A stretch of 23,344 nt of DNA from an uncultured Deinococcales bacterium (GTDB lineage Bacteria > Deinococcota > Deinococci > Deinococcales > JAAFIG01): assembly GCA_964247135.1 (NCBI GenBank), contig CAXTTL010000050.1:1-23344 (forward strand). Direction: 5' to 3'. This document shows positions 1 to 23,194 of this stretch, one piece after another. The translations under genes and the position numbers were made by a program. The notes under the pieces were generated by a model. That model searched no databases and was not told the origin of the DNA. It worked only from the letters and a program-made list of their open reading frames with translations. Every line of letters begins with the position of its first letter. The stretch's first letter is position 1.

Positions 1-761
1 TCACTGACTTCGGAGGCCGCCGGTACGAGCAATTCCCGCACTCCAGCATTCGAGCCGATCTTCTCGAGCAACTCGAGGGTCGTTTTGTTCATGCGCTCAA
101 AACGTACACCCAGCCCGCGCAAACCACGAAGCGCCTGAGCGCAAACCTGAGCGGGCGCTCGAGTGCCAATCAATTCGCGGTTGTTGCGCACGCGTTCAAA
201 AATACCGTCGTTGCGTCCAACCACCAAACCCAAACTGAGGGTCGAATCGCCGACCAGCATCGCCACGCTGGAATAAACGACCACATCGGCTGCAAACTCG
301 AGCGGACGGCAACTGTAGGTGGTTGCCAAGGAATTTTCGACAATGACCAGTGCGCCAACCGTGTGCGCCAAACTCGCAATCTTTGATAGGTCGGGAACGC
401 CCAGACTGGCACTCGAAAGCGCCTCGACGAACACCGCGCTCGCACCCTCGAAGTTGATGCTTTCAGGCTCGAGCAAATCAGCAAATTCGACGGTAATGCC
501 AAATTCGGGCAGCATTGCCAAAGCGCGAAATGCCGCGCCAGACAACTCATTGGAGGCAATCACCCGATCCAGAGGACGTAAAAGCCGCGCCACGGCATCA
601 AGTGCCGCGCGTCCAGAAGCAAACGCCAAACCCCAAGCTTTCGCAGACCCTAAACCCGCACCCTCGAGTGCCGAGATTCGCGCCTCCAACTGCGCGGCGG
701 GACTTGAGAATTCTGCTCCAGCGTGGGTGGCGAGGGTGTCAAAGCGTAAAACCTCGTCCAT
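1..761 (-). CDS. Cys/Met metabolism PLP-dependent enzyme family homolog (cystathionine gamma-lyase/synthase-like), 3' end outside window, catalytic residues degenerate
   Basis: Hand-translated; absent from the ORF track because the frame stays open to base 1. MDEVLRFDTLATHAG...LEARISALEG...AFASGRAA...VFVE...VPDLSKIASLAHTVGALVIVENSLAT...RPLEFAADVVVYS...ALRGLRGLGVRFER follows the MetB/MetC motif order. Confidence 0.85.
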   Translation of the reverse strand, partial: MDEVLRFDTLATHAGAEFSSPAAQLEARISALEGAGLGSAKAWGLAFASGRAALDAVARLLRPLDRVIASNELSGAAFRALAMLPEFGITVEFADLLEPESINFEGASAVFVEALSSASLGVPDLSKIASLAHTVGALVIVENSLATTYSCRPLEFAADVVVYSSVAMLVGDSTLSLGLVVGRNDGIFERVRNNRELIGTRAPAQVCAQALRGLRGLGVRFERMNKTTLELLEKIGSNAGVRELLVPAASEVS

Positions 762-986
762 GCAGCAGGCATCATACTAGAAAATGGCGATGGTACAAGG
801 GGCAAAACCTGCCAAACAGCACCTCGAGAACAGAGAACCGTGTCTTTGACGGCATCATAGCCTCGAGTGTGGGTTAGAGATCACACAAGTAACCCTCGAG
901 TTTCAAACTCACCCATACAAACCATTTCACGGTAAACTGTTCTCGCTTCACAGCAGATTGAATCAGGACTTCAGGAGGAGATGTCT

Positions 987-2246
987 ATGAAATTCTCAAA
1001 AATATTGGGCGCAAGTTTGGTGCTCGGCACGGGAATCGCGGCATTATCGCTTTTTACCGTTGGGGCACAAGAAAAAAAGAACCTCGAGTTTGTCACGACC
1101 AACCTTCAATCCTTTGCCGATTACTTCAACCCGCTGGTTGAAAAGTACAACAAAGCCAATCCTGCGCAAAACTTGAAGTGGACCGATTTGCCACAAGCCT
1201 CGATTCAACCCAGGGTTTTGGCTGGCGTCGCGGCGGGCAACCCACCAGACGCCATTCAAATGAACTCGAGTCAGGTGCTCGAGCTTGCCCAGCAGGGCGC
1301 GTTGTTGCCTTTGAACAACTTATTGACCAAGGAGCAATTAGCCATTTACCAAAAGCAAGCGCTCGCAGCCTTCAGTTTTGATGGCAAAGTCTACGCACTG
1401 CCCGATTATGCCTCGCCGAGGGTGGTGATGTTTAACACCGACATCCTGAAAAAAGCTGGCTTGGACGGTCAACAGTTGCCGCGCACGATGGGCGACATTA
1501 TCGCCTGGGCAAAAATCATCAAGGACAAAACGGGGCTTTACGGCTTTTCGCCGCTGGTTGCCAACGTGGATTTCTTAAAAACCTTCCAGGAACAAGGCTT
1601 GCCGCTGTTTTCCGACGACCGCAAAAAAGCCGTCTTCAACAGCCCAGCCCACGTGGCATTGTTGCAACAATACGTTGATTTGCGCAAAAAAGATTACTTT
1701 GCCGAGGACGCCATCCGCAAAGGTTTCACCGCCGGTTACGAGTTGTACAGCGCGGGCAAATTGGGCATCATCATCATTGCACCCACTTTTGTACCACGCC
1801 TGCAAAAAGACAACGAAGCCGTTTACAAGGTTTCAGTCGTCGCGCCGCACCCCGTCAGCGCCGCCCAAGTCGCCCAAGCCAGCACCTTTTCTTACGGCGT
1901 GCCAAAAGGGGTCAGCGATCCGAAAGCCGCCGCGCAACTGGCATTCTGGCTGACCAACGACGAACAACAACTCGCCTTTTCCAAACGCGCCGGAACAACC
2001 TTCCCAACCACCATCAAAGCCGCTCGAGACCCATTCTTTAACACGGGTGGCGACAGCCTGATCGACAAATCTCGAGCCGCCGCCGCCAAAACCATGAAGG
2101 TCGCCAAAGAACTGGCGGTGTTTGTACCGAACGCTTCGGTTTTAAACAAAGCCTTCAAAGACAACATCGAAGCCGCGTTGTTCGGACAAAAAACCGCCAA
2201 AGCCGCCTTGGATGAGATCGTTAAAATCTGGAACGCCAACCTTTAA
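987..2246 (+). CDS. ABC transporter sugar-binding protein (extracellular solute-binding family 1)
   Basis: Signal peptide MKFSKILGASLVLG...VGA|QE; motifs AAGNPPD, GALLPL, DGKVYALP, MFNTDILKKAG, KTAKAALDE. The GGAGG SD at 974-978 is better spaced for ATG 987 than ATG 981. Confidence 0.9.
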   Translation: MKFSKILGASLVLGTGIAALSLFTVGAQEKKNLEFVTTNLQSFADYFNPLVEKYNKANPAQNLKWTDLPQASIQPRVLAGVAAGNPPDAIQMNSSQVLELAQQGALLPLNNLLTKEQLAIYQKQALAAFSFDGKVYALPDYASPRVVMFNTDILKKAGLDGQQLPRTMGDIIAWAKIIKDKTGLYGFSPLVANVDFLKTFQEQGLPLFSDDRKKAVFNSPAHVALLQQYVDLRKKDYFAEDAIRKGFTAGYELYSAGKLGIIIIAPTFVPRLQKDNEAVYKVSVVAPHPVSAAQVAQASTFSYGVPKGVSDPKAAAQLAFWLTNDEQQLAFSKRAGTTFPTTIKAARDPFFNTGGDSLIDKSRAAAAKTMKVAKELAVFVPNASVLNKAFKDNIEAALFGQKTAKAALDEIVKIWNANL

Positions 2247-2260
2247 AATCTTTTGAGAAC

Positions 2261-2296
2261 GGGTGCAGGGTCTCTAGACCCTGCACCCTCTTTTTT
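2261..2296 (+). terminator. Intrinsic terminator after the solute-binding protein gene
   Basis: GGGTGCAGGGTCT-ct-AGACCCTGCACCC perfect 13-bp inverted repeat followed by TCTTTTTT. Confidence 0.85.
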
Positions 2297-2381
2297 AATC
2301 TCAAATCTCGAGAAGCACTTTCAAGCACAAGGTTTTCTCGAAATTTCAGGTTAAAAGACTCGCGCTAAAGTATCATTGGGC

Positions 2382-3011
2382 ATGAAGAACTTCTGGCGAA
2401 ATATTTTGCTGCTTAGTGGAATAACCGTTCTGTTCTCGAGCTGCGGGTTTTTGTTGCTGCTGAGCTTGGTGTTTTTCCAACCGCGCGGTTGTTGGGATAT
2501 TTGCGGCGGACCTTACGTTCAACCACCTCCAGAAAGCATCAATTTCAACACCGATGAACGCATTTTACGTGGCGATTGGCGGTCTTTGATTCCTGGCAGC
2601 AACGAATTTGACCCTGGCAAAACCGTCAGTTTAAAACTCGAGGCAACCTATACAGACACGACCTCGTACACGGTCACGGGAACATTTCAAGTGACTGGCG
2701 ATGCAGCCTTGAGCGTTCAAGGTATGGTCAAGGGCGGCGACTTGCAGGCGTACACCAAAAGCGCAAACCGTACTTCACCACTTCCACCGCAAGCTTTTGC
2801 TGAATTGTTACTCTCGAGTGCCGTTGGGCAACCTGCAACTCAGGTCCTCATCTTGTGTCCTTACACGTATCAAGGCACGGACAACCAATGGCAGTACAGT
2901 GGTGTGCTCGAGCCTGTCACGGCAGGTCGGGTGCCATTCTCGAGTTGTTATGGCAGCACCTCGAGCGGGAAACATGTGGTTGTGGGTCGTAAACCAGTTG
3001 CAGTGCCGTAA
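2382..3011 (+). CDS. Hypothetical exported/lipoprotein
   Basis: MKNFWRNILLLSGITVLFSSC (lipobox-like) followed by a hydrophobic stretch; TATCAT at 2371-2376 lies 5 nt before ATG 2382, a leaderless configuration. Confidence 0.7.
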   Translation: MKNFWRNILLLSGITVLFSSCGFLLLLSLVFFQPRGCWDICGGPYVQPPPESINFNTDERILRGDWRSLIPGSNEFDPGKTVSLKLEATYTDTTSYTVTGTFQVTGDAALSVQGMVKGGDLQAYTKSANRTSPLPPQAFAELLLSSAVGQPATQVLILCPYTYQGTDNQWQYSGVLEPVTAGRVPFSSCYGSTSSGKHVVVGRKPVAVP

Positions 3012-3013
3012 AT

Positions 3014-4609
3014 TTACTTTCCAGCAACCCAAACTTGCGGTGCTTTGTCCCGTTCGAGTTTCAAAAATTGATTCGCGCCCACGTCCATCCAATCGCTGTT
3101 GACCCCATCGTTCCACTGTACCCGCAGCTTGGTGCTCTCGAGCGTGCCAATGCCAAAATGAATCCAGCCCAAACTACCACTGGCATGACCACCGCCAATC
3201 GTGATTTCACGGCGAATCGTGCGTGTTCCAACTTGCACTTCAACCCATGAACCAATTCCGTCACGGTTCGCGCCAGGTTGTTGTAATTTCAGCTCGAGCC
3301 AGTGGTTTTTGGGGTCATTGCTGGTGTTGCGCCAGATTTGAGCTTTGTCGTGACGGTTGACCACCAGAATATCGAGTTGCCCATCCAAGTTGAAATCCAC
3401 CACCGCTGCCCCTCGAGCCGCTTTGAAACTTGCCACACCTGCTTTGTCGCCAGCCTCGAGGAAGGTGCCGTCGGGTTTTTGCAGCAGGAGGTTGTTTGGG
3501 TCTTTGTCGGCAAAATCTGGCATTTTTGCCACGTTTCCCTTGGCAATGAACAAGTCGGCGTAAGAGTCGTTGTTGACATCTTCAAATTGCGCGTGCCAAC
3601 CCGTTGACGGGTGAACGTCGCCGCCAGTGTAAGGTCGGTGCGCGGTGACACCCAGTTTGAAGGCAACATCGCCAAACGTTGGTTTGCTCGAGCCAGAGGT
3701 AAGCATTTGCAATTTGGAATCTGCCATACTGGTCATAAAATAATCTGGGAAGCCGTCACCGTTCAGGTCGTAACTGGCGATCCCCATGCCCCAAATCACC
3801 AATTTCTTCCAACCGTCGGCTTCGGTGTACAGCATCGGGTTTTTTCCAGGCTCGAGCTTCCAGAGTTGTTCCTGACCACCCTTGTAATACTCTCGGTCAT
3901 TGGAAACCCGCAGGGCTGGCGTTCCCGAACGGTTCCAGTCGGTGAACAACATGCTTAAAGCGCAATAACTTGGCTTTAAAGCTTGAGGTGTGCTGTATTT
4001 CCCGCTCGAGCCTCGGTAGAGCATGTTGCTGGTACATGAACCCCAAGGCGAATCGGATTTGCTGCGGTCAATGTAACTGCCCACCGCCAGCGTGGGCAGG
4101 CTCGAGTTTTTCTCCCAGGTCGCGGCAAAAGACGTGTGCCAAGCGTCGCCACCGTCGAACCCCCATTTTTCGTTGGCGCGTTCAAACCCGCAATTGCCCA
4201 AACCTCTAAACAAAACATTTTCGCCGACCCGCAAAACCATCAAATCCGTGATGCCGTCCGCGTCCACATCGAGCGGGTACGCGCCCGTGACATTTTTCAG
4301 CTCGAGGTTTGACTTTTGGGCTTTGAAGGTCAACGCTCCGCCGACGCTCGAGGTGTTGCGGTAGAAGGCGGCTCTGTTCGTGCCACCCGCCAAGAACACG
4401 TCGGGCAGTCCGTCGCTGTTGCAATCAAAAGTTGCCACGCCACCGCCGACCATGTACTCCCACTCGCCGTTATAGACGCTCGAGATGCCTGAATTGCTTT
4501 CTTCGAGGTATTGGGGGACGATTGGGCTGGCTTCGTCTTGGGCGATGGCGAACAAACCACCAGAAAGCAAGAGCAGGAAACCGAAACCATATTTTTTGGG
4601 CGAACGCAT
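3014..4609 (-). CDS. CRTAC1 family protein (FG-GAP/VCBS-like repeats plus C-terminal ASPIC/UnbV domain), secreted
   Basis: Signal peptide; repeated DxNxDGxxD motifs (DCNSDGLPD, DVDADGITD, DLNGDGFPD, DVNNDSYAD, DFNLDGQLD); C-terminal NHWLELKL...NRDGIGSWVEV...HFGIG...VQWNDG. Confidence 0.88.
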   Translation of the reverse strand: MRSPKKYGFGFLLLLSGGLFAIAQDEASPIVPQYLEESNSGISSVYNGEWEYMVGGGVATFDCNSDGLPDVFLAGGTNRAAFYRNTSSVGGALTFKAQKSNLELKNVTGAYPLDVDADGITDLMVLRVGENVLFRGLGNCGFERANEKWGFDGGDAWHTSFAATWEKNSSLPTLAVGSYIDRSKSDSPWGSCTSNMLYRGSSGKYSTPQALKPSYCALSMLFTDWNRSGTPALRVSNDREYYKGGQEQLWKLEPGKNPMLYTEADGWKKLVIWGMGIASYDLNGDGFPDYFMTSMADSKLQMLTSGSSKPTFGDVAFKLGVTAHRPYTGGDVHPSTGWHAQFEDVNNDSYADLFIAKGNVAKMPDFADKDPNNLLLQKPDGTFLEAGDKAGVASFKAARGAAVVDFNLDGQLDILVVNRHDKAQIWRNTSNDPKNHWLELKLQQPGANRDGIGSWVEVQVGTRTIRREITIGGGHASGSLGWIHFGIGTLESTKLRVQWNDGVNSDWMDVGANQFLKLERDKAPQVWVAGK

Positions 4610-4682
4610 GACCAGATTATAGGCTCGAGTTTGAAATTTTGAAAACCCTGAAATTACAGTTTAGACAAGTTAAACTCGAGTC
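4610..4682. promoter_or_regulatory. Back-to-back leaderless promoters
   Basis: Minus-strand TATAAT (4616-4621) is 6 nt before ATG 4609; plus-strand TAAACT (4671-4676) is 6 nt before ATG 4683; neither gene has an SD. Confidence 0.7.
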
Positions 4683-5573
4683 ATGATTGCAGCGCTGGAC
4701 ATCGGTGGGACAAAAATTTCAGTTGCGTTGGTGGACGCCGCAACCATCCTCGAGCGCCATGAGGTTCAAACACCAGAAATTGCTACACCAGAGGCGGTTT
4801 GCACAGCGGCAATCAATTTGCTCGAGCCGTTCAAAACCCGAGTCTCGAGTTTGGGCGTGGCGGCAACGGGGCGGGTGGCGAACGGTCGGGTCACGGCGCT
4901 CAATTCCAAAACGCTGACGGGTTGGAACGATTTTGATTTGCAAACCACGTTTCAGAAAGCCTTGAACCTCGAGACGATTGTGCTGAACGATGCCGATGCG
5001 GCGGCTTGGGGCGAGGCTGCATTTGGGGCTGGAGTTGGCGTGCGAGATTTTGTGTTTGTCACGATTTCGACAGGCATCGGCGGTGGTTTGATTCTCAACT
5101 CGAGGTTGCACACCACACCATTTGGCTTGCAAGCCGATCTTGGGTTCACGCTGATCAACGGTGTACCGCTCGAGTTTCTGGCTTCGGGAACGGCGTTAGA
5201 CCATTACGCGGTTGCTCGAGGCTGGACGGACGCTCGAGATGTGATTGCAAACGCCCCAACAGATTCAGGCGCAAACGCGAAACTCGAGGAAAGCGCGAGC
5301 TTGATTGCGCAAAAAATTGCGGATTTACGGGTGGCGCTTGGGATTACCAGGGCGGTGATCGGTGGCGGTTTGGGACTCGCAGACGGGTATCTCGAGCGTC
5401 TGAAGCACAACCTTTCCAAACTTCCAGAACTTTATCAACTCGAGCTAGTGCCTGCGGCGTTGGGTGTGGATGCGGGTTTGATCGGCGCGGCGGCTTGGGC
5501 ACAACAAAATTTCGTAGGGGATGGTCTGAGACCATCCCCTACCTCATCCTCTACGAAGGGAATCACATCATGA
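4683..5573 (+). CDS. ROK family sugar kinase (N-acetylmannosamine kinase-like)
   Basis: ALDIGGTK, LNDADAAAWGE, FVTISTGIGGG, VIGGGLG and DAGLIGAA motifs; no N-terminal HTH domain. Confidence 0.88.
   Translation: MIAALDIGGTKISVALVDAATILERHEVQTPEIATPEAVCTAAINLLEPFKTRVSSLGVAATGRVANGRVTALNSKTLTGWNDFDLQTTFQKALNLETIVLNDADAAAWGEAAFGAGVGVRDFVFVTISTGIGGGLILNSRLHTTPFGLQADLGFTLINGVPLEFLASGTALDHYAVARGWTDARDVIANAPTDSGANAKLEESASLIAQKIADLRVALGITRAVIGGGLGLADGYLERLKHNLSKLPELYQLELVPAALGVDAGLIGAAAWAQQNFVGDGLRPSPTSSSTKGITS
5514..5542. repeat. GTAG-type REP palindrome inside the 3' end of the ROK gene
   Basis: GTAGGGGATGGTCT-G-AGACCATCCCCTAC, a perfect 14-bp inverted repeat with GTAG/CTAC ends. Confidence 0.8.
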
Positions 5574-6796
5574 TGACTTGGGAAGATCACCTCGAGCGGG
5601 CTGGCGGGCAACTTGTGCCCCATGCCGTGAAATTTGCTCGAGACTTGCGGGCGGCTGGTGTGCAGGTGACGGCTTCACAAACCCAGACCTTCACGCAAGC
5701 GCTGACCGTCATTTCGGTCATGGACGCTCGAGCTTTTCAGGACACCGCGCGAACCTGTTTGGTCACGCGCCGCGAGGATTTGATTCGGTTTGAAGAGGTG
5801 TTCAAGAAATTTTGGATTGATCTGGGCATGGGCGGCATTCCAGAAGAATTGCTCAACCGTATGGGCGTGCCACCAAAACGCAATCAGGCGCGTCCTGCCG
5901 AGGTGCGGGAAACTTCAAACGAAAAACGGATTGAAAATCCGAATGCCAAACCCGAAAAACTTTCTGACCGAGCGTTCACGTACTCGAGCGAAGAGGTTCT
6001 CAAAAACAAGCGTTTTGATCACATGAACGAACTCGAACTTCAAACGGCGCGGCGCGTGATGCAGGGTTTTCAGTGGCAGGTCGGAATGCGGCGCACACGG
6101 CGGTTTAAAGCCGCCAGTCGCGGTGAAAAACTCGATTGGCGCGGCAGTTTGCGGGCTTCGTTCAAAACCGGTGGCGAGTGGCTGAAGCTCGAGTGGAAGG
6201 AACGCAAAACCAAACCGCGACCACTGATTGTGATTGCCGACGTTTCGGGATCGATGGAACGTTACGCGCGAATGCTGCTGCATTTTTTGCACGTGGTCAC
6301 GCAGGTTGCCATTCGGGGCGAGAAACGCAAGGTCGAGACTTTTGTCTTCGGCACGCGCCTCTCAAGGATTTCAAAATTGCTCGAGTCTCGAGATGTGGAC
6401 ACGGCAGTGGATGATGTCGGAAAAACCGTGCGCGATTGGTCTGGCGGCACGCGCATCGGTGAAAGTTTGAACACGTTTAACCGCATTTGGGCAAAGCGCG
6501 TGCTTGGACGCGGCGCGGTGGTCTTAATCATTTCTGACGGTTGGGAACAGGGCGATCCCGAATTGCTGGGCAAGCAAATGGAACGCTTGCAAAAAACCTG
6601 TCATCGTTTGATTTGGTTAAACCCTTTAATCGCCACGCAAGGTTTTGCCCCCGAAACCAGGGGGTTAAAAGCCGCGTTGCCATTTGTCGATGATTTCTTA
6701 CCCGTCCATAACCTCTCGAGTTTGGAAAGTCTGGCAAGGCACCTCGAGAGCTTACCCGCAAGACGTTCGGCGCGGCGCAGCGGCTTTAGAAGTTGA
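5570..6796 (+). CDS. CoxE-like VWA domain protein
   Basis: FARDLRAAG, DVSGSMERY (MIDAS), FVFGTRL, DWSGGTRIG, IISDGWE, LIWLNPL, VDDFLPVHNLSSL. The start ATG 5570 overlaps the ROK stop (ATGA); the upstream part of the 596-aa ORF is shadow. Confidence 0.88.
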   Translation: MMTWEDHLERAGGQLVPHAVKFARDLRAAGVQVTASQTQTFTQALTVISVMDARAFQDTARTCLVTRREDLIRFEEVFKKFWIDLGMGGIPEELLNRMGVPPKRNQARPAEVRETSNEKRIENPNAKPEKLSDRAFTYSSEEVLKNKRFDHMNELELQTARRVMQGFQWQVGMRRTRRFKAASRGEKLDWRGSLRASFKTGGEWLKLEWKERKTKPRPLIVIADVSGSMERYARMLLHFLHVVTQVAIRGEKRKVETFVFGTRLSRISKLLESRDVDTAVDDVGKTVRDWSGGTRIGESLNTFNRIWAKRVLGRGAVVLIISDGWEQGDPELLGKQMERLQKTCHRLIWLNPLIATQGFAPETRGLKAALPFVDDFLPVHNLSSLESLARHLESLPARRSARRSGFRS

Positions 6797-7196
6797 TCTC
6801 GAGTTTGTAACGCCCACTGTTGCCCTGTTGGTCGAGTTTGAAATCGAAGCGTTCATTTGGGCGTTGATATCTGGCTTCGACTTTGGTCGCAGAATTTTTG
6901 ACGTTCAGTTTTGATCGCAACCAGCCACGCCTGAGCAGTTCATTGTGAAAAAATGCGTACACTTGACCCAACGAGGCATTCGTTTCAAACTCGACTTTTC
7001 TCGATTCGCCATCTTTTTCTTCGAGGTTAAACACACGACTGTTTGGGTAGGCTGGCAATCCAATTCGCTTGTTGACAATCAAAACACTTGGGGATGCAAC
7101 CACCACGACTGTGGTTTGTACAGGTACGGGCTTGGTGACAACTGGTTGAGGATCAATCACGCGAACGACGCAGCTCGAGACGGTCACAAGCATCAA
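6786..7196 (-). CDS. Hypothetical lipoprotein (start uncertain)
   Basis: VSSC lipobox-like motif, Pro/Val-rich linker, then LPAYPNS...VEFETNASLGQVYAFFHNELLRRGW small alpha/beta domain. Confidence 0.65.
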   Translation of the reverse strand: MMLVTVSSCVVRVIDPQPVVTKPVPVQTTVVVVASPSVLIVNKRIGLPAYPNSRVFNLEEKDGESRKVEFETNASLGQVYAFFHNELLRRGWLRSKLNVKNSATKVEARYQRPNERFDFKLDQQGNSGRYKLEINF

Positions 7197-8642: not shown

Positions 8643-9049
8643 TGGCGATCAAAGCACGTTCATTTAGAGACGCCAAAAGCCAGGCTAAATCCAACCCCGA
8701 ACTGGTCTGGTGGGTCTTCATGCGCTTGTCAGGCATGGCGTTGGTGGTTTTAACCATGTTCCACTTGTTTAAGAATTACATCATCACCTCCGAGCTTGGT
8801 TGGGATTATGCCAGCGTGGTTGGCAAATACTCCGAAGTGACCGAACGCCTGTACTTGCTGGCATTGCTCGCACTCGGTTTAACCCACGGCACAAACGGTT
8901 TGCGTTATGCAATAGACGACATGACCTCGAGAAATCCAGTGGCGCGGTTTTGGGTCAAAAGCCTTGCTTACATTGTCATCGCCCTAATATTTGTTTTTGG
9001 GCTTCTGGCATTGTTTGTGAACGTCACACCGCCAGCCCCACCAGCCTAA
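8642..9049 (+). CDS. sdhD: Succinate dehydrogenase hydrophobic membrane anchor
   Basis: WWVFMRLSG, HL, THGTNGLRYAIDD; translationally coupled to sdhC (TGATG). Confidence 0.92.
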   Translation: MAIKARSFRDAKSQAKSNPELVWWVFMRLSGMALVVLTMFHLFKNYIITSELGWDYASVVGKYSEVTERLYLLALLALGLTHGTNGLRYAIDDMTSRNPVARFWVKSLAYIVIALIFVFGLLALFVNVTPPAPPA

Positions 9050-9086: not shown

Positions 9087-10844
9087 ATGAAAGCACACAA
9101 ATACGATGTCATCGTGGTGGGCGCAGGCGGAAGCGGTTTGATGGCGGCACTCTACGCCACCAAAAACGCGACTGGCAGCGTCGCCGTCATCAGCAAGCTC
9201 TACCCGACCCGTTCGCACACCGGCGCAGCCCAGGGCGGCGTCGGCGCGGCGCTCGGCAATGTGGACGAAGACCACTGGGAATGGCACATGTTCGACACCA
9301 TCAAGGGCGGCGATTACCTGACCGACCAGGATGCCGCCGAAATTTTTGCCAAAGACGTGATCGAAGCGGTGTTGGAACTCGAGCACATGGGACTGCCATT
9401 CTCGAGGCTTCCAAACGGCAAAATTGCGCAGCGTAGGTTCGGTGGTCACACCAAAGAATTCGGCAAAGCCCCAGTTCACCGCGCCTGTTACGCCGCCGAC
9501 CGCACGGGTCACATGATTTTGCAAACCTTGTACCAACAAAGCATCAAAGAGGGCGTGACGTTTTTTAACGAATACCTGGTGCTCGATTTGATCCTCGAGA
9601 CTGAAGCAGACGGTAAGAAAGTTTGCAAGGGCGTTGTTTCAATGGAGATGGCAACGGGCGAGATTCACACCTTCCACGCCAAATCGGTGGTGCTGGCAAC
9701 GGGCGGCAACGGGCGCATGTTCAAAGTCACCAGCAACGCCCACGCGCTCACAGGCGACCTGACGGGTATTGCGTACCGTCGCGGCATTCCGCTCGAGGAC
9801 ATGGAATTTTACCAATTTCACCCGACGGGCTTGTACAAACTCGGGGTACTGTTAACCGAAGGTGTGCGCGGCGAGGGCGGCATTTTGCGCAACGGCAACG
9901 GCGAGCGTTTCATGGAACGCTACGCCCCAACCATCAAAGACCTTGCCCCCAGGGATATTGTCTCGAGAAGCATGTACATGGAAATTCGTGAAGGGCGCGG
10001 CGCAGGACCAAACAAAGATTACATTCTGCTCGATGTGACGCACATCGACCCGAAGATTCTCGAGGAACGCCTGCCAGACATCATGGATTTTAGCCGCACT
10101 TACTTGCGTGTCGAACCGACCAAAGAACCCGTGCCAATTCAACCCACCGCGCATTACACGATGGGCGGCATTCCAACCACGATTGATGGCGAAGTGATTT
10201 ATGGCACGACCACCCAAGAAACCGTTCGTGGTTTGTACGCCGCCGGCGAGGTCGCCTGCGTCAGCCTTCACGGCGCAAACCGTCTGGGCACCAACTCTCT
10301 GGGCGACCTGATTGTCTTCGGTAAACGCACAGGTGTCGCCGCCGCCAAATACGCCAACCAAGCCAGCCTCGAGCCGATCACCGACGATGCCGACAAACGC
10401 ACCGAAGATTACGTTGCCAAAATCAAAAACTCGAGCGGCAGCGAAAGCGTCTCTAAAATCCGCAGCGAGTTGCAACAAACCATGCAGGACAACGCCAGCG
10501 TTTTCCGCACCGAAGAAACCCTGTCCACTCAAGTCGAAATCTTAAAAACCTTGTTCGCCCGTTACGAAAACATTGGCATCACCGACCGAGGCGAACGCTT
10601 CAACACCGACCTGATCGAAGCCATCGAACTCGGATTCCTGCTCGAGAATGCCGAAGCCTTTGTTCACAGTGCCCTCAACCGCCGTGAATCTCGAGGGGCA
10701 CACGCCAGGGAAGATTTTAAAGAACGCGACGACGTGAATTTCTTGAAGCACACCATGATTTTTAAAGGCGAAACTGGCAAGCCCGAAATCAAATGGAAAG
10801 ACGTAGTGCTCGGCAAATACGAACCGAAACCCAGAACCTATTAA
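9087..10844 (+). CDS. sdhA: Succinate dehydrogenase flavoprotein subunit
   Basis: GAGGSG, RSHTGAAQGG (covalent FAD His), QFHPTG, TEGVRGEGG, HYTMGG, HGANRLGTNSL, RRESRGAH. Confidence 0.97.
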   Translation: MKAHKYDVIVVGAGGSGLMAALYATKNATGSVAVISKLYPTRSHTGAAQGGVGAALGNVDEDHWEWHMFDTIKGGDYLTDQDAAEIFAKDVIEAVLELEHMGLPFSRLPNGKIAQRRFGGHTKEFGKAPVHRACYAADRTGHMILQTLYQQSIKEGVTFFNEYLVLDLILETEADGKKVCKGVVSMEMATGEIHTFHAKSVVLATGGNGRMFKVTSNAHALTGDLTGIAYRRGIPLEDMEFYQFHPTGLYKLGVLLTEGVRGEGGILRNGNGERFMERYAPTIKDLAPRDIVSRSMYMEIREGRGAGPNKDYILLDVTHIDPKILEERLPDIMDFSRTYLRVEPTKEPVPIQPTAHYTMGGIPTTIDGEVIYGTTTQETVRGLYAAGEVACVSLHGANRLGTNSLGDLIVFGKRTGVAAAKYANQASLEPITDDADKRTEDYVAKIKNSSGSESVSKIRSELQQTMQDNASVFRTEETLSTQVEILKTLFARYENIGITDRGERFNTDLIEAIELGFLLENAEAFVHSALNRRESRGAHAREDFKERDDVNFLKHTMIFKGETGKPEIKWKDVVLGKYEPKPRTY

Positions 10845-10848
10845 ACCC

Positions 10849-10991
10849 GTAGGGGCGCTGCTTGCTGCGCCCTTGCACGGAAATGACGCACTTGCTCGAG
10901 TTTTATTGTTCAAAAATTGATCGTCCTGTCGGGTGAACACAAGCGACCATGCCCGAAGGTGCGTATTATGGTCAAGAAGGTTCACCCCTAC
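10849..10991. repeat. Composite REP pair (BIME/REPIN-like) between sdhA and sdhB
   Basis: Plus-strand GTAGGGGCGCTGCTTGCTGCGCCCTTGC (10849-10876) and minus-strand GTAGGGGTGAACC...GTTCACCC (10991 down to about 10931); the outer ends GTAGGGG/CCCCTAC are complementary. Confidence 0.7.
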
Positions 10992-11016: not shown

Positions 11017-11715
11017 ATGCAGGTTGTTTTTAAAATCCGTCGTTACAATCCCGAAAAAGACAAGAAACCATACTGGGCGGAATACACGCTCGAGGTGGAC
11101 AAACGAGATCGCATTCTGGACATTTTGCATCGCATCAAATGGGAAATGGATGGCACGCTCAGTTTCAGGCGTTCGTGTGCGCACGGGATTTGCGGTTCGG
11201 ATGCGATGTTGATCAACGGGCGCAACCGTTTGGCGTGCAAGGTGCTGATTGAGGATTTGGGACAGACGATTACCGTCGAACCGATTCGGGGTTTGACCGT
11301 CGAAAAAGATTTGATTGTGGACATGAAACCGTTTTTCGAGAGTTACGAGGCGGTGCTGCCGTTTTTCATCAACGATGATCCTCCTCCCGCTCGAGAGCGC
11401 ATTCAAAGCGCCGAGGAACACGCGGTTTTCGAGGCGAGCACCAAGTGTATTTTGTGCGCGTGTTGCACCACCTCATGCCCCATTTTCTGGGTGAATGGGC
11501 AGTACCTTGGACCTGCCAGCATCGTTCAAGCGCACCGTTTTATTTTTGACTCGAGGGACAAAGGCGGCGCGAAGAGGCTCGAGGTTTTAAACCAGAACAC
11601 AGGCGTTTGGCGTTGTCGCACGGCGTACAACTGCACCGAGGCTTGCCCGAGGGATATTCCGATCACGGATATTATTGGTCAGGTGAAACGGGCGGTGTTG
11701 TACAGCAACACCTGA
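11017..11715 (+). CDS. sdhB: Succinate dehydrogenase iron-sulfur subunit
   Basis: FRRSCAHGICGSD...LAC, CILCACCTTSCP, CRTAYNCTEACP; AAGGAG SD before ATG 11017 (MQVVFK). Confidence 0.96.
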   Translation: MQVVFKIRRYNPEKDKKPYWAEYTLEVDKRDRILDILHRIKWEMDGTLSFRRSCAHGICGSDAMLINGRNRLACKVLIEDLGQTITVEPIRGLTVEKDLIVDMKPFFESYEAVLPFFINDDPPPARERIQSAEEHAVFEASTKCILCACCTTSCPIFWVNGQYLGPASIVQAHRFIFDSRDKGGAKRLEVLNQNTGVWRCRTAYNCTEACPRDIPITDIIGQVKRAVLYSNT

Positions 11716-11733: not shown

Positions 11734-11767
11734 AAGGCTCGAGCATCCAACGCTCGAGCCTTTTTTT
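11734..11767 (+). terminator. Intrinsic terminator of the sdh operon, stem formed by two CTCGAG copies
   Basis: AAGGCTCGAGC-atccaac-GCTCGAGCCTT running into T7. Confidence 0.88.
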
Positions 11768-11838
11768 AATCTGTGGTTTTGATTGATCAAAATTTGTTAA
11801 TCCTTGAGAATTCAAATCGTTTTAAAGAAAGCCAAACC

Positions 11839-11859
11839 GTAGGGTGCGCCCCGCGCACC
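11839..11859 (+). repeat. GTAG-type REP
   Basis: GTAGGGTGCGCCCCGCGCACC: GTAG followed by a GGTGCG/CGCACC hairpin, in a convergent intergenic gap. Confidence 0.6.
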
Positions 11860-11891
11860 AACGCTTGAAACACTCGAGCCTTTTCTTTGGC

Positions 11892-16062: not shown

Positions 16063-16087
16063 GTTTTCCCTTGTGTGGCTCGAGACG

Positions 16088-16114
16088 GCAAGGCGCAGCA
16101 AGCAGCGCCCCTAC
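16088..16114 (-). repeat. GTAG-type REP, near-identical to 10849-10876
   Basis: Minus strand GTAGGGGCGCTGCTTGCTGCGCCTTGC; differs from the sdhA-sdhB copy by one C. Confidence 0.85.
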
Positions 16115-16150
16115 AACAGCTTTGGGTTGAAAACTCTCTGCCCTCCGCAA

Positions 16151-16762: not shown

Positions 16763-16786
16763 GTTTTCCTCCAGGTATGAGATTGA

Positions 16787-16821
16787 GCATATATATACTA
16801 CTTTAAACATATATATGTCAA
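16787..16821 (-). promoter_or_regulatory. Promoter of the GGDEF-RHH gene with twin palindromic operators
   Basis: Minus-strand TTGACA (16816-16821); palindromes ACATATATATGT (16807-16818) and GCATATATATAC (16787-16798), exactly 20 bp apart. Confidence 0.65.
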
Positions 16822-16957
16822 ACGTATCTCGAGTCTCTTGATTGACATGGATCAAAACCAAAAACGATTGTGGTTCTGACCTTTTATTGGCAACCAAAAC
16901 CGCGTAAACTCGAGGTATTGTGATGCAGTTTTCTCAAACCAAGATTTGGATCAAACC

Positions 16958-18451
16958 ATGAGCGTAACCAAACGAGGGCTGTTCGATTTTGGCAAAGCCA
17001 AAACGGCGTCAACCACACTGGACTTGACGGTGCCCCTGCCTGTCAGTTCGCGCGATGTCTTTAGCGATGTTTATTCGGGCAAAGATGCCCTGCGCGACGA
17101 GATGCTTTACGGCAACCGCGACCTGATTCGGACGCTCGAGGCTTTGAGTGTGGCAGGTCCTTACAAAATGACCTCACCCTGGGAAATGACTGACGAGCGC
17201 GGGCATTCAACCATCAACGCCGGCGGTTATGCTGCAATACCTTTTGGCGACAAATACCCGCCAATGCTCGAGTTCTTGCGCGAATACTTAGAACGCGACA
17301 CCAGCATGGGTTTGCCGCAACAATCGGCAGCCACCTGGCGGGCAGCGCTCGAGACGAATCTGGTCAGTTTGCTCTCAAAATTTGCGCCCTCACACGCCGA
17401 CTCGAGGGTATTTTTCAGCAATTCTGGGGCAGAGGCAGTTGAGGCGGCGATCAAATTTGTCAAGGCGGCACGCCCCAAAGCCAAAGAAATCATCAACTTT
17501 AAAGGCGCGTACCACGGTAAAACCTTCGGGGCGCTGGCGTTAACCCCCAATGCCGAATACCAGGATTTGTTCCGCCCACTGATGGGCAACGTCACCACCC
17601 TGCCTTACGGCGACGCTGGAGCGCTTGAAAGCACCGTGCGAAAGCTTGGGGCAGCCAACGTCTGCGCCGTGATTCTCGAGCCAACCCAGGGCGAGGCGGG
17701 CGTGATTTCGCCGCCGAGCGATTTTCTGGCGCGGGTCAATGAACTCTGCAAAAAGCACGGCATTCTGATGGTCGCCGACGAAATTCAAACGGGGCTTGGA
17801 CGCACTGGACACTGGTTTGCCAGTATTGCAGGAGGACTTGAGCCAGACATTATCACGCTCGCAAAACCTTTAGGCGGCGGTATTACGGCGGTTGGCGCGA
17901 CCATTGCACGGTCTTGGATTGTTGGTAAAACCTTGGGTGGTTTCTCGAGCAAACGCCACAGCAACACCTTTGGCGGCAACAGTTTGGCGATGGCAATCGG
18001 TTTAAAAGCACTCGAGTTGCTGGTGGATGAGAACCTGCCCGAACGCAGCCAACGCTTGGGTGCAAAAGGCTTGGAACGCCTCAAAGCCTTGCAACTCAAG
18101 TACCCCAACTTGCTCGAGGCGGTGCGCGGTGCGGGCTTATTGATGGCATTACAATTTCGCACTGTGATTCCACCCCAAATGATTCCAGGACTCGAGGAAT
18201 TGGTGTCCGAACTTTCGGGAGGCTTGGGAATACGGATGCTTTACGAGGGTGGTGTGACCGCCAATTTTTCACTCTCGAGCAAGCGTGTGATTCGTTTGAC
18301 GCCCGCCCTGACCATACCCGACGATGTTTTCGAGCGCATGTTAAACCGAGTCGAGCAAACCGCCGAACGCTACCGCGACGCGAACACCATGTTGCGCCGC
18401 ACGCCAATTGACCGTCTTTACCGCCTCGGCAAAGTCGCGTTCTCCAAGTAA
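16958..18451 (+). CDS. Class III PLP-dependent aminotransferase
   Basis: [56 protein letters not shown] (PLP Lys), [15 protein letters not shown]; start ATG 16958 or TTG 16946. Confidence 0.9.
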
Positions 18452-18463
18452 GACCAGAGTATT

Positions 18464-20809
18464 GTGACCAGCCGACCTTTGCCCCTGCGCTCGAGTGACC
18501 TGATGGTGGGTTTGCTGATTGTGCTTTTTGTGATGCTGCTGGCAGGATTTGGCACGCTGATGCTGCACGTTTTGGGTTTGGGATTGCTCTCCAGCCTCTG
18601 GTTTTTCAGCGTTTTTGGGCTGGGTTTTATGCTTGCCAATACCATAAAACCAAAATCCGAGCCTCGAGCACAAGATTTTAAATTGAGGATTGTTTTTGTC
18701 GTGCTGGCGCTGGTTCAGACCGTGTTGGCTTGGCGGTTAACGCTTCATACTTCAGTGCTCGAGGTTGGGTTGTACTTGCTGATTGCGGGTTTCGCGTTTG
18801 GCTTAACTTGGGCTGCCTTGCCCAAACCAACGCCGGCAAGCAGAAGGATCATGGTCTTGGTCGGGATGTTAGGGCTTTTGATTTTTGGTTTTTTATTTGC
18901 CGCCAGGATCGCCAGCGACTTTGCCCCTCGAGAGGCAAACCTCAAAAAGGCATTAAGCGTTGACGAACGCGCTCAGTTGGAAGTCTTAAAGCTGCAACCG
19001 CAGTTGAGCGGTTTCAACCCTGGCGCACTGAAGCGCCAACTGAAAGCCAACCTCGGTAAGCAACTGACAAATTTTAGTCTGGCACTGAAAAACGACAGCG
19101 CCGCCCAAAAAGCCTTGCTCTCAGACCCTGCCACACCCAGCTACTGGCGCGAGATTCTTGAGCGTGGCGGTTTAAAAGGGGTCATGGAAATTCACTTTTT
19201 AAAACAAAAAATCAATCTCGAGAAAGCCTTCAGGGACGAAGACCCGAACGCCATTCGAGAATTGCTCTCGAGCGGCGAAATACCGGCTTGGGTGCGTTTG
19301 GATTTGGAACGCGGCGGCTTGAAAGATTGGGTGCACCGAAAATTTGACCGCGAGCGTTTGACCATCGAAAACGCCATTCAAAATGCTGATCCAAAAGCCA
19401 TCAAGCTGTTGGTGAAAAACCCGCAAACCCGTCCAGAATTAAGGGCTTTGCTGGAAAAAGGTGGGGTGCGGGTCAGCATTCAAAAGCGCTTAACAAATTT
19501 GCGCCTGTCCCTGAAAAAAGCGATTGAAAGCGGTGAAACTGACGCGGTCGGTCTGGTGTTTGGGCATCCGTTCACGCCCAAAAAGATTCGGGAAATGTTC
19601 AAGGACGGGGCGTTACAACCACAGATCAAGCTCGAGCTTGAAACAAACCAGAATTTAATCATTGCCGCTTTTTTACATTCAGACCCTCAAGCCGTCAAAC
19701 AATTAAAGGCGTTGGGAATTGCCAAAACCAACTTGCCCACAGATTTTACCCTGCCTGTGACCGTTCAAGAATCTCGAACGCAACTGGCAATCAAGCAATT
19801 GCTCGGGCAGGCAGACAATATTCGGGCTGGGTTTCTGACGCGCCGCACCTTGCTGACCCGAGCGATTCAAAATGATGATCAAACGGCGATCAAAACCTTG
19901 TGCCCAGATTGCACGGCGAAAACTCCAGACCATAACTCAACCGCAAGCTCGGGTGCAATCGTAGCCCTTCAAACACCTGTTGCCCAAGAATCCACGGCAA
20001 CCACCAAAACCCTCAAATTGCCCGAATCACTTAAAATCTATTTGCAAAATGGTGGGTTGCGAAGCCCAATCAAAGCAACGTACACCGTGCAATACCAACT
20101 TATTGAAAAAGCCATCCATTCTGGGGACATGACCCAGGTGCTCGCCCTGCTCGAGAATCCCAAACTTCCAAGCGACGTGACTGCCTGGATCACCAAACTG
20201 AATTTGAGCGACATTGCCACGGGCGAGGCTCGAGCGGCACAACTTCAAAAAGCCAAAACCATTCTTGATAAGTTGCAGCAAAGCGAAATCAAAAGTGCTG
20301 TTTTGGCGGCGCTCGAGGTGGTGAAATTGACTTTGACCGCACTTGAGGTCGGTGAACTTGAGGGCATGATCAGCCGGCAGGTGATTGACAACGCCTTAAA
20401 CCAAGCCTTGCCAGCCTTTGATGCTGCCGCCAGCAAAATCCAAACTCGAGCCGTCGATGTTGCCTTGCAGGGCGCGTTGATTGCTTTGACCGTCAACGAA
20501 AAAGCTGCGGGAAATGCAGCCGTGCAAACCTTAATTCGCAGGGCGCAATTTGAGCTTGCCAAGGAAGCCCCGAAGACCGTCAAAACAATTTTTGACGGTA
20601 CGCTCAAAGCCGCTCGAGGTCAAGTCTGGGTCATGCGCCAAAAACTCTTTTCCGTGATTGACGCTTTGGCGCAGGCGCAAAAAGAGACGTTCGTGATGGT
20701 ACTGCGTAAAACGTTTGCGGTTCTGGCATTGATCGCCTTGCTGGGCGCTGGATTGAGCTTTAAAAGCCCACAACCTGAAGTCTTCAATCAGCGCAAGATC
20801 ATCAGGTAA
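18464..20809 (+). CDS. Membrane protein with a large helical repeat domain
   Basis: About 5 N-terminal TM helices, about 600 aa soluble region with 49-aa repeats, one C-terminal TM helix; begins 12 nt after the aminotransferase stop. Confidence 0.8.
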   Translation: MTSRPLPLRSSDLMVGLLIVLFVMLLAGFGTLMLHVLGLGLLSSLWFFSVFGLGFMLANTIKPKSEPRAQDFKLRIVFVVLALVQTVLAWRLTLHTSVLEVGLYLLIAGFAFGLTWAALPKPTPASRRIMVLVGMLGLLIFGFLFAARIASDFAPREANLKKALSVDERAQLEVLKLQPQLSGFNPGALKRQLKANLGKQLTNFSLALKNDSAAQKALLSDPATPSYWREILERGGLKGVMEIHFLKQKINLEKAFRDEDPNAIRELLSSGEIPAWVRLDLERGGLKDWVHRKFDRERLTIENAIQNADPKAIKLLVKNPQTRPELRALLEKGGVRVSIQKRLTNLRLSLKKAIESGETDAVGLVFGHPFTPKKIREMFKDGALQPQIKLELETNQNLIIAAFLHSDPQAVKQLKALGIAKTNLPTDFTLPVTVQESRTQLAIKQLLGQADNIRAGFLTRRTLLTRAIQNDDQTAIKTLCPDCTAKTPDHNSTASSGAIVALQTPVAQESTATTKTLKLPESLKIYLQNGGLRSPIKATYTVQYQLIEKAIHSGDMTQVLALLENPKLPSDVTAWITKLNLSDIATGEARAAQLQKAKTILDKLQQSEIKSAVLAALEVVKLTLTALEVGELEGMISRQVIDNALNQALPAFDAAASKIQTRAVDVALQGALIALTVNEKAAGNAAVQTLIRRAQFELAKEAPKTVKTIFDGTLKAARGQVWVMRQKLFSVIDALAQAQKETFVMVLRKTFAVLALIALLGAGLSFKSPQPEVFNQRKIIR

Positions 20810-22383
20810 AATTTCATTGGACCGCTCGGCAGCACGTCTTGACTGGCGGCGATCCCAACCGATGTGTTGCCCTCGAGTTTTTTCAGGCGCTCAATAAAAT
20901 CGGCGATATCGGCATCGGTCACAATATCGGTCGGAATGTTCTCGAGCGGCACGCCGCGAGCACGCAATTCGCTGCTGACTTCACGGTTGAGGTTTTGCAA
21001 AGCGGTGGTCATGGTTAAGACTGGGCGTTTATCGCCTGAACCGACCGCGATTTCCCTGGACTTGATGGGTTGACCCGTGCTGAACAAGACCGTATTGGGT
21101 TTCACCTCGAGGGTCACTGGGATTTGCGGTTCGCTGACGCGTGGTAGGTTTTTGCTCGAGCGCACCAAAATCAAATCTGGGGCATTGGTTTTGATGGCTT
21201 GCTGCACGAACGTCTCGAGGTCGGCGTTCGGTTTGAGGCTGACCGAACGTCCTTTGGTGCCGCCGCGACCCTCGGCAATTTGGGAGGCGGATTTTAAAAG
21301 GTTTTGCATTCGGGTTCGGGTTTCGTCTATTGATCCGTTTGGAATCACAATCTGCAAGATCAGTTCGCCTTGACGGTACAAGAAATTGCCGCTGGTCGCC
21401 TGAATCAAAGCGTCTTGGGTTTGTTGCAAACTGCGTTTGGTGTCACCCAATTGGGTTTGCAAATCGTTGTTTTGCGTCTCGAGGGTGGCAAGGCTTTGCT
21501 GTAAGTCCAGACGTTGCTGGGTCAGTTCGGTCACGTCGGAGTTCAAGGTTTGACGTTGCGCCGCCAGCGTGCGCACGTCATCCTCGAGCTTGGCGAGCCG
21601 TGCCTTTTGTGGTTCGAGTTGGGCTTTGGCGCTTAAATATCGTTTCTCAAGGTCTATTTTGTCGTTGCGTAAACCCGTGATGGTGTTCTCGAGTGCGGAT
21701 CGTCTGACATCGAGCTTGCTCAAGCTATCGCGCAATTGATTGCGTTGTTCGTTTAAGGCTTTAATTTCAATATCCAAATTTTTGATCTTCGTGTTCGTCT
21801 CGCGCCCCAAAGCCGTAATTTGCGCATTACGTTGCTCGAGTTCAGTGTTTTTTACATCGAGCAATTTGGTTTTGTCTTTGATTTGCTGCCCAAGGTTGAG
21901 ACGTTCAGTCTCGAGGGTCTTGGCTTTTGCGGTGAATGTCGTGATCAAAGCCACTTGTGCCGCCAATTCAGAAGCTTTGCGCTCGAGTTCGGCACGTCCC
22001 GCGTCAAGTTGAGCTTTGCCCGTATTCAATTGTTGCTCGAGTAATTTTTGGGCGGCTTTGGCTTTGCTCAAATCCTCGCGGCTGAGGGCGTATTCTTCTT
22101 CGACCGAAGCCAGTTTCCGCTTGGCATTTTGGTATTCTTGATTGATTTCGTTGGCACGAAAAGCGTTGTTCACGGTGCTTTGTGCCAGCAAGCCCACCGC
22201 GCCGACGGTGACCAAAGCGACCAGCACGCCCGAACCCACCGCCACGACCAAACCCGTGGTTTTGGGGCGCAAGCCAAACAAACGCATGTGTTTGCGTCCG
22301 ACTTTGCGCCCGACAACATCACCCAGATAGGCGATCAAACCGCCTAAGAAAGCAACGCTGAGCAAGACCAAAATCCAGAACAC
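20788..22383 (-). CDS. DUF3084 domain coiled-coil membrane protein
   Basis: GGLIAYLGDVVGRKVGRKHMRLFGLRPKTT signature followed by a long coiled coil; downstream of lptB; AAGGGGG SD before GTG. Confidence 0.85.
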   Translation of the reverse strand: MFWILVLLSVAFLGGLIAYLGDVVGRKVGRKHMRLFGLRPKTTGLVVAVGSGVLVALVTVGAVGLLAQSTVNNAFRANEINQEYQNAKRKLASVEEEYALSREDLSKAKAAQKLLEQQLNTGKAQLDAGRAELERKASELAAQVALITTFTAKAKTLETERLNLGQQIKDKTKLLDVKNTELEQRNAQITALGRETNTKIKNLDIEIKALNEQRNQLRDSLSKLDVRRSALENTITGLRNDKIDLEKRYLSAKAQLEPQKARLAKLEDDVRTLAAQRQTLNSDVTELTQQRLDLQQSLATLETQNNDLQTQLGDTKRSLQQTQDALIQATSGNFLYRQGELILQIVIPNGSIDETRTRMQNLLKSASQIAEGRGGTKGRSVSLKPNADLETFVQQAIKTNAPDLILVRSSKNLPRVSEPQIPVTLEVKPNTVLFSTGQPIKSREIAVGSGDKRPVLTMTTALQNLNREVSSELRARGVPLENIPTDIVTDADIADFIERLKKLEGNTSVGIAASQDVLPSGPMKFYLMILR

Positions 22384-22402
22384 GACTCACCCCCTTAAAC
22401 AC

Positions 22403-23194
22403 TTACAGCTCGAATTCGTCACCCAGGTAATAATCTCTCGCCCCAGAATCTTTGCTGAAGGCTTCTGGCGTACCCTGAAAGACCACTTTACCGTCATACA
22501 TCAAATAAACGCGGTCAGTTAAGGCAACGGTTTCACGCACGGCATGATCGGTGATAAAAACACCCAACCCGCGCCGTTCGCGCAAGTCACGAATCAGGCG
22601 CTGAATCTCGCGCACGCTTTTGGGGTCAACGCCGGTAAACGGCTCGTCGAGCAAAATAAAATCTGGGTTGGTGGTCAAACTTCTGGCAATCTCGAGCCGA
22701 CGACGCTCGCCGCCCGAAAGCGTAAAGGCTTGCTTGTTCGCCAAATGCGAGAGGCTGAATTCCTCGAGCAATTCGGCGGCTTTTTGTTGGCGTTGCGCGT
22801 CTGAAAGCGGTTGAAACTCGAGAATCGCCAGCAAGTTGTCTTTGGCGGTCATGCGCCTGAAGGCGCTGGCTTCTTGCGGCAAGTAACCCAAACCCATGCG
22901 GGCGCGTTCGTGCATGGGAAGGCGCGTGATTTCGGTGCCTGAGAGGTGAATCGTGCCAGAGTTGGGTTTGACGAAACCCACCATCATGTAAAAGGTGGTG
23001 GTTTTACCCGCGCCGTTGGGTCCAAAGAGCGCCACAATCTCGCCGCGTTTCAGCTCCAAATCGACGCCCTGCACAACTTCGCGCTTGCCGTAACGTTTGT
23101 GAAGCCCTCGAGCCACCAACCTGGGAATTTGGCTTGATCCGGTAATTGAAATTGAAGGTTGAGGTGAGGGAGTTTGAAAGTTTGGGGCGGTCAC
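22403..23194 (-). CDS. lptB: LptB-family ABC transporter ATP-binding protein
   Basis: [56 protein letters not shown]. Confidence 0.92.

Follow-up and report, generated by a model that had tools for sequence, protein, structure and literature searches.

Highly iterated palindromes (HIPs) are known from cyanobacteria, and HIP1 (GCGATCGC) with the alternate HIPs of that phylum (Elhai 2015, PMC4390886; Xu, Lawrence and Durand 2018, PMC5861425; Rodriguez-Cruz et al. 2026, PMC13756078) is the closest known system to the one described here. HIP1 is reported in this literature to be 15- to 300-fold over-represented and to be conserved within and between reading frames. It has stayed unexplained for three decades and has been treated as a cyanobacterial peculiarity, and a word search of the text of Elhai 2015 (PMC4390886) returned no mention of Deinococcus or Thermus. 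We analysed a 23,344-nucleotide stretch of DNA from an uncultured Deinococcales bacterium (the window), which is contig C50 of a 5.09-Mb metagenome-assembled genome (386 contigs, 84% complete, 52.7% G+C). The hexamer CTCGAG is repeated throughout the window and the genome, and its best reading is as a genuine HIP, belonging to an uncultured Deinococcales family and held by weak selection on each copy or by biased repair. It is an independent and denser case, in another phylum and with a different word.

The window contains 166 exact copies of CTCGAG, spanning positions 63 to 23112 (the last at 23107-23112), or about 7.1 per kb. One hundred dinucleotide-preserving shuffles gave a mean of 3.99 copies (standard deviation (sd) 2.08, maximum 10), none reached 166, and the excess is thus about 40x. 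The original prediction, made from the letters of the window, had claimed a massive excess from a hand count of about 165; the count was accurate, the roughly 6 copies it expected were slightly too many, and genome-wide the excess over base composition is about 25x. The whole genome has 33,925 copies where 1,369 are expected from base composition (24.8x), about one per 150 bp or 6.7 per kb. CTCGAG is the top-ranking hexamer of the genome, and the runners-up are its own overlaps; a maximal-order Markov expectation (27,444, ratio 1.24) is uninformative, because the hexamer already dominates the pentamers on which this expectation is built. The word is found on each of the 297 contigs of 5 kb or more (2.56-10.5 per kb, median 6.77), so that the excess is not confined to one contig.

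The flanks of CTCGAG are near random, with each base at 18-39% at each position and only G at -1 and C at +1 reaching 39%; the hexamer therefore stands alone and does not belong to a longer repeat. The conserved sequence beyond a core that characterizes repetitive extragenic palindromic (REP) sequences and miniature inverted-repeat transposable elements (MITEs) was not found around it. The tetramer TCGA is 2.76x over-represented overall, but 62% of its copies fall within CTCGAG and elsewhere it stands at 1.12x, which rules out TCGA frequency as the cause, an explanation the original prediction had itself raised. The other 15 NTCGAN words have 121-2,188 copies each. One-letter variants of CTCGAG range from 0.08x to 1.76x, and the transition variants are the commonest (1.16-1.76x; CTTGAG/CTCAAG 1.16x, TTCGAG/CTCGAA 1.7x). 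The variants containing T are not depleted. The transition variants rank as expected for decay products of CTCGAG, and we saw none of the depletion that short-patch repair leaves.

Several other palindromes are scarce in the same genome. The reversed word GAGCTC (the SacI site) is absent from its 5.09 Mb and has at most 25 copies in 16 of the 19 genomes of the family (the remaining three have 114, 161, and 568). Other 6-nt palindromes are present at GGGCCC 1, CGGCCG 3, AGGCCT 4, CGTACG 5, GGATCC 7, CCGCGG 11, and CAGCTG 15 copies, and the tetramer GGCC has only 380. This scarcity suggests heavy, long-standing restriction pressure.

Genes were called with a simple custom caller (4,193 genes, 81% of the genome), and the density of CTCGAG is 6.65 per kb in coding DNA and 6.70 per kb in the remainder. 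It is higher where constraint is lowest: 1,973 clean intergenic gaps of 20-300 bp have 9.47 copies per kb at 46% G+C, 46x the composition expectation, with the highest values between convergent genes (10.8 per kb) and immediately past stop codons, within 10 bp. The 66 tRNA genes have 10 copies in 5,129 bp (1.95 per kb); no 23S gene is assembled in this genome. Permuting codons within each gene, which keeps all proteins and the codon usage of every gene (hereafter, synonymous shuffles), reduced the coding total from 27,501 to 3,858.5 (sd 66). The excess thus survives protein- and codon-preserving shuffles, under which the original prediction had allowed that it might vanish. It is present in all three frames: frame 0, with 63% of coding sites, has 17,270 against 3,048 in shuffles (5.7x), frame 1 has 3,978 against 261 (15x), and frame 2 has 6,253 against 549 (11x). 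The sites and genes of the window to which we refer are the following.

1083..1088, + strand: CTCGAG in frame 0 (CTC GAG = Leu-Glu), within the solute-binding protein gene at 981-2246
1265..1270, + strand: CTCGAG in frame 2 (xxC TCG AGx = Ser-Ser)
2071..2076, + strand: CTCGAG in frame 1 (xCT CGA Gxx = Ser-Arg-Ala)
4683..5573, + strand: ROK-family gene with 11 CTCGAG, the densest of the genes named in the original prediction
9087..10844, + strand: sdhA with 10 CTCGAG, aligned with 18 orthologues
11738..11765, + strand: terminator-like hairpin 3' of the gene ending at 11715, with two CTCGAG copies as its stem (GGCTCGAGC and GCTCGAGCC, separated by a 7-nt loop) and a T run after it

The first three sites had been offered as examples of the three frames, and all were read correctly (1083 as KN-LE-FV, 1265 as QMN-SS-Q, 2071 as DK-SR-AA). 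The uneven density among genes was likewise as claimed, with 11 sites in the ROK gene and five in the solute-binding gene. Of the 166 window sites, 33 lie outside called genes, and some of these are truly coding, since the caller missed two probable genes: a long frame at 5006-6796, which the end of the ROK gene overlaps, and a frame at 3-761 that is open-ended at the left edge.

The word has altered the proteome. Leu-Glu dipeptides number 22,260 where 9,434 are expected (2.4x), while Glu-Leu (9,507) is not enriched. Between 77.6% and 77.8% of Leu-Glu pairs are spelled CTCGAG. Outside these pairs CTC makes up 15.4% of Leu codons and GAG 32.5% of Glu codons, which gives an expected CTCGAG share of 5.0%. 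The odds ratio for the CTCGAG spelling is 66 (natural logarithm 4.2), in agreement with the value from intergenic DNA (ln 46 = 3.8). The bias acts on the DNA itself, coding or not, with a population-scaled strength of about 4 natural-log odds. In sdhA, six of the 10 sites encode residues that are also allowed in most of the 18 aligned orthologues, and the other four (10059, 10368, 10430, and 10641) fall on residues largely confined to this lineage. Position 10059 is Leu-Glu here and Ile-Glu in most orthologues, 10368 is Leu-Glu here and aromatic-x elsewhere, 10430 is Asn-Ser-Ser, and 10641 is Leu-Glu here and Leu-Asp in 10 of the 18.

Sites are lost less often than comparable words. Compared with four syntenic genomes of the same genus (84-87% identity), 74-79% of the window sites are kept, against 42-48% of control hexamers. 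Over 296 kb aligned with a fifth genome of the genus (85% identity), 934 of 1,127 frame-0 sites, 163 of 247 frame-1 sites, 305 of 391 frame-2 sites, and 150 of 204 non-coding sites are kept, against 45.6-46.0% of control hexamers, so that retention within the genus is about 1.4-1.8x that of controls. Where orthologous sites differ, the differences are mainly ordinary synonymous transitions, with no hot-spot position. Recent gains also occur: the CTCGAG at window position 8926 is present in this genome alone, and the four relatives have CGCCAA or CGCCAG. We considered whether the hexamer is written as a block, because in the five-genome window alignment, at places where CTCGAG is present in one genome and absent from another, differences of three or more letters between near-identical flanks made up 24% as against 4.9% in controls. 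This candidate was dropped: over 296 kb the excess shrank to about 2x, and the alternatives that most often differ by several letters change the codon within a six-fold family (CTGGAA and TTGGAG for Leu-Glu; CCAGGG, with AGG for Arg).

Between genera, 147 orthologue pairs (65% amino acid identity, 43% third-position identity) share 171 of 948 sites. At 410 places where both genera have Leu-Glu, the spelling is CTCGAG in 82% of cases in one genus and in 39% in the other, and both use it together at 122 places, where 131 are expected under independence. Placement is thus independent once the amino acids are fixed, yet each lineage holds a high level, and the pattern is therefore a live equilibrium, re-established after synonymous saturation, and not a relic.

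We found exactly 19 genomes of the family in the collection, and all 19, from five genera, carry the trait, with 12,028-35,442 copies each (about 4.3-6.8 per kb in the other 18). A sampled genome of the same genus (338 kb) stands 7.3x above synonymous shuffles with Leu-Glu at 2.26x, and one of another genus (59% G+C, 400 kb sampled) stands 5.1x above with Leu-Glu at 2.18x. The named records closest to the SdhA of the window come from uncultured "Deinococcales bacterium" genomes (85-98% protein identity), followed by Meiothermus, Thermus, Calidithermus, and Truepera (67-71%), which bears out the guess of Deinococcota in the original prediction. Counting CTCGAG in 201 genomes across the phylum revealed graded levels outside the family. 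Three further genera have 1.4-3.5 copies per kb and a separate genome (G196) has 3.6. In sampled DNA these weaker carriers stand 2.1-3.5x above synonymous shuffles, with a density of 2.2-4.4 per kb where the DNA is non-coding. Among them are a Meiothermus genome and the cultured Calidithermus roseus NBRC 110900, each represented by named loci; the Calidithermus locus, of only 13 kb, exceeds synonymous shuffles 2.35x with 3.4 sites per kb. Levels in a Thermus-like genus are about 0.7-1.6 copies per kb, close to those of the reversed control word. In a Deinococcus-like genus, a label derived from the named loci L057 and L080 (one site each in 21.7 kb), the 83 genomes of 1.9-6.1 Mb have 26-1,010 copies each; this is avoidance, opposite in sign to the family. 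Against synonymous shuffles, Thermus loci stand at 0.72x and Deinococcus loci at 0.29x.

Copies are spread more evenly at short range than chance would give. The mean spacing is 148 bp and the maximum 2,644 bp; only 0.8% of spacings are 10 or less, where 6.5% are expected, and 4.4% are 20 or less, where 12.6% are expected. The variance-to-mean ratio in 300-bp bins is 0.82, compared with 1.0-1.24 for five frequent control words. Most of the longest motif-free stretches (e.g., C13:11893-14536) are AT-rich, the four longest having 27-40% G+C, and such AT-rich stretches are probably imported. An imported-looking N6/N4 methylase gene (C189:4856-5632) has 40% G+C and no CTCGAG on a contig with 6.3 sites per kb. 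Lack of the word flags imported DNA in these genomes. A role in transcription termination was considered for CTCGAG and rejected, as pairs of copies with a T run after the stop codon are found at 67 of 4,168 genes and account for less than 2% of sites.

The methylation-directed repair named in the original prediction led us to screen for methyltransferases and nucleases, whereby the specificity of a methyltransferase is not readable from its sequence, and unrelated enzymes could share one specificity. This genome encodes three full and two partial N6/N4 DNA methyltransferases, two C5 enzymes, one D12, two MmeI-like, one large Eco57I-type, and one type-I-like enzyme. The XhoI family, TaqI_C, and Vsr had no match in this 84%-complete genome. 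An XhoI-type nuclease was found in none of the 19 family genomes, a weak negative, since the model also matched none of 14 control genomes. No methyltransferase orthogroup among those followed is common to the whole family, whose genomes are mostly 57-94% complete metagenome assemblies. The L082-type enzyme has matches in five of 18 genomes. Orthologues of the L125/L083 type, at 74% identity or more, occur in six of 19, and those of the L122 D12 type in seven of 19; the L190 D12 type is found in three of five good genomes, and TaqI_C in six of 18. The L082 type was rejected as the cause, as genomes that lack it also have about 6.4 sites per kb. A complete single-contig genome of the family (5.09 Mb, 23,515 sites) has no PF01555 (N6/N4-type) gene, and its single C5 methylase gene has 42% G+C and no site and looks imported. 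One 91%-complete family genome has no C5 methylase match. The repair branch of the prediction was thus followed to no conserved enzyme, and the three mechanisms it named (methylation-directed repair bias, nucleoid-protein binding, and DNA uptake) are all still candidates.

The single array of clustered regularly interspaced short palindromic repeats (CRISPR) in the genome (C221:6954-8137) comprises 17 repeats of 37 nt, each of which contains CTCGAG, and 16 spacers. Of the 18 other genomes of the family, 12 have arrays related to it. Among 95 unique spacers from five family genomes we found 24 copies of CTCGAG in 3,300 bp, where 0.77 are expected, and 22 of the spacers have at least one site. 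As the spacers are rich in the motif, the DNA sampled by these cells is therefore as rich in CTCGAG as the host. Of 15 spacers from this genome, one is apparently self-targeting: it agrees at 35 of 37 nt with a peroxiredoxin gene on the chromosome of the same genome (C25:927-961). Contig C25 was considered as a prophage and turned out to be ordinary chromosome. The array of genome G002 had no match in a phage collection, and two single spacers searched against viral contigs had none either. A scan for three close CTCGAG sites returned 80 loci, mostly of 65-70% G+C, none of which matched a spacer or had close similarity to the genome.

Compared with known systems, CTCGAG is most like HIP1: both are short G+C-rich palindromes, hyper-abundant across a lineage, found within and between genes, and conserved above background. 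The roughly 25x excess of CTCGAG and its 66-83% conservation, against 46% in controls, stand beside the 15- to 300-fold range given for HIP1, and both motifs occur inside CRISPR repeats, as described for HIP1 (PMC6604393) and as seen here in the arrays of the family. CTCGAG differs in phylum, in being a hexamer and not an octamer, in its much greater density (one per 150 bp), in its strong toll on proteins (more than 12,000 extra Leu-Glu pairs), and in being graded across its phylum and avoided in the Deinococcus-like genus. Methylases that recognize HIP1, DmtA and DmtC, are described (PMC13756078), whereas we found no conserved cognate for CTCGAG among the orthogroups followed in this family. 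A search of publications found none on CTCGAG in connection with iterated palindromes, over-representation, Deinococcus methylomes, or Meiothermus.

Two other kinds of word offer partial likenesses. DNA uptake sequences (DUS in Neisseria, and uptake signal sequences, USS, in Pasteurellaceae) are 9-12 nt long, non-palindromic, and present at about one per kb. They are like CTCGAG in being lineage-specific words over-represented across genes and spacers, and some copies of CTCGAG form terminator stems. CTCGAG is unlike them as a 6-nt palindrome at 6.7 per kb with weak flanks, of which terminator-type pairs follow so few genes, and it is not a classical uptake sequence. Relatives in Thermus and Deinococcus are naturally transformable, and by analogy an uptake role for CTCGAG is possible. 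In Escherichia coli, Dcm methylation and very-short-patch repair by Vsr at CCWGG have a small effect and leave the T-containing variant depleted. This footprint is like the present one in that a site-specific repair raises the frequency of its own recognition word, and unlike it in that CTCGAG reaches 25x, its variants are undepleted, Vsr has no match in this genome, and C5 methylases are patchy.

The genome-wide, HIP-like process proposed in the original prediction is upheld by the presence of the word in all frames, its greater density between genes, its conservation above background, its lineage-specific equilibrium, and its occurrence in all 19 family genomes. We see about an even chance that this process is a pervasive weak fixation bias for the complete hexamer, most likely selection on a function of the DNA. 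Each copy would add a little to that function, and natural selection would favour the complete hexamer. The function could be a mark of self or kin DNA for uptake or recombination, as is now proposed for cyanobacterial HIP1; alternatively, the hexamer could be bound by an abundant chromosome protein. The equilibrium bias would be strong enough to fix thousands of amino acid changes and strongest where constraint is lowest. We favour copy-wise selection because copies are evenly spaced at short range, no conserved methylase and, in this genome, no Vsr was found, the variants are not depleted, and work on HIP1 is now moving in this direction; the spacing, the lack of a conserved methyltransferase, and the motif-rich spacers are hints towards it and away from pure drive. 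Several points weigh against this reading. Weak selection and biased repair are inseparable by sequence, as both cut loss, raise gain, and spare recent imports. Close pairs could be scarce simply because two self-complementary copies fold into hairpins that selection removes. The spacers may stem from kin DNA, from self DNA, or from mobile elements that the same force has shaped, which makes their evidence ambiguous. Our gene calls are crude, no reader protein was identified, and the functional parallel with HIP1, an analogy, leans on what the cyanobacterial papers report.

Ranked second, and a serious rival though distinctly less probable, is a drive by methylation-coupled biased repair, as in Elhai's model of HIP1, in which a CTCGAG or TCGA methyltransferase and a short-patch repair convert near-cognate mismatches to the word as a neutral or selfish by-product. 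Such repair would act on all resident DNA and spare imports, as is consistent with a density that is equal or higher between genes, with AT-rich motif-free gaps, and with the site-less imported methylase gene of 40% G+C; the family does carry many DNA methyltransferases, and HIP1 is stated to be recognised by two methylases (PMC13756078). It has to be reconciled with patchy orthogroups, a complete genome free of PF01555, a 91%-complete genome free of C5 matches, the negative searches for Vsr in this genome and for XhoI-type nucleases in all 19 (with the weak model), and one-letter variants that are not depleted and orthologous differences that are ordinary synonymous transitions with no hot position. 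More tentatively still, and on balance unlikely, CTCGAG could be the word of a Deinococcota-wide system of kin-DNA discrimination that needs no conserved methyltransferase, with accumulators (this family, some Meiothermus/Calidithermus-like genera, and one further genus) using its density as a tag for uptake, recombination, or tolerance, and Deinococcus-like genomes purging it. If true, this would imply a reader protein and open the HIP1 puzzle to tests in a second phylum, one that can be cultivated.

The remaining explanations are far less probable. That a past process wrote CTCGAG and that its sites persist only through embedding in constrained proteins draws on two counts: roughly half of all Leu-Glu pairs are shared between genera (410 of 811 and 699), and in the five-genome window alignment the patterns in which a single genome lacks the site (33, putative losses) are more numerous than those in which a single genome has it (22, putative gains). 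It is largely refuted and very unlikely, as non-coding sites are kept well above the 46% of controls, short intergenic gaps are densest, recent gains such as that at 8926 are clear, and third positions are saturated while the CTCGAG share of shared Leu-Glu pairs (82% and 39%) far exceeds the 5-13% given by codon usage. A by-product of translation, in which the CTC-GAG codon pair is preferred or the Leu-Glu peptide is of use, would account for the majority of coding sites in the Leu-Glu frame and for the Leu-Glu excess. We regard it as refuted and highly improbable, given the 15x and 11x excess in the other frames, the dense intergenic gaps, the ordinary frequency of Glu-Leu, and the 15% and 33% shares of CTC and GAG among Leu and Glu codons outside Leu-Glu. 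Least credible of all is an artefact, the footprint of a mobile repeat (REP, MITE), or linker contamination, for which nothing speaks beyond sheer number and the presence of REP-like hairpins in the window; near-random flanks, close pairs in unique contexts, orthologous positions in independently assembled genomes, and an excess in all 19 family genomes, one of them a single 5.09-Mb contig, refute it.

The useful features of this case are its graded strength between related genera, its reversed sign in a neighbouring genus, its measurable protein cost, and weaker forms apparently in cultured organisms. These open comparative and bench tests of a selected signal against a by-product of repair. 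In practice, XhoI would cut these genomes into pieces of about 150 bp, and a force at the level of DNA distorts the statistics of codons and dipeptides in this clade.

The window also contains repeats of other kinds. A dispersed element of about 60 nt at 10931-10991 (also at 5510-5554) lies just upstream of a likely ATG at 11017; this genome and the five others of the genus contain many copies of it at 85-97% identity, and it matched no Rfam family at the gathering score. REP-like G+C-rich hairpins that start with CCGTAGGG are located at 10847-10872 and 11838-11860. A 20-nt stretch within the latter (11839-11858) occurs on at least eight contigs and is matched by a spacer in the CRISPR array of a related genome.

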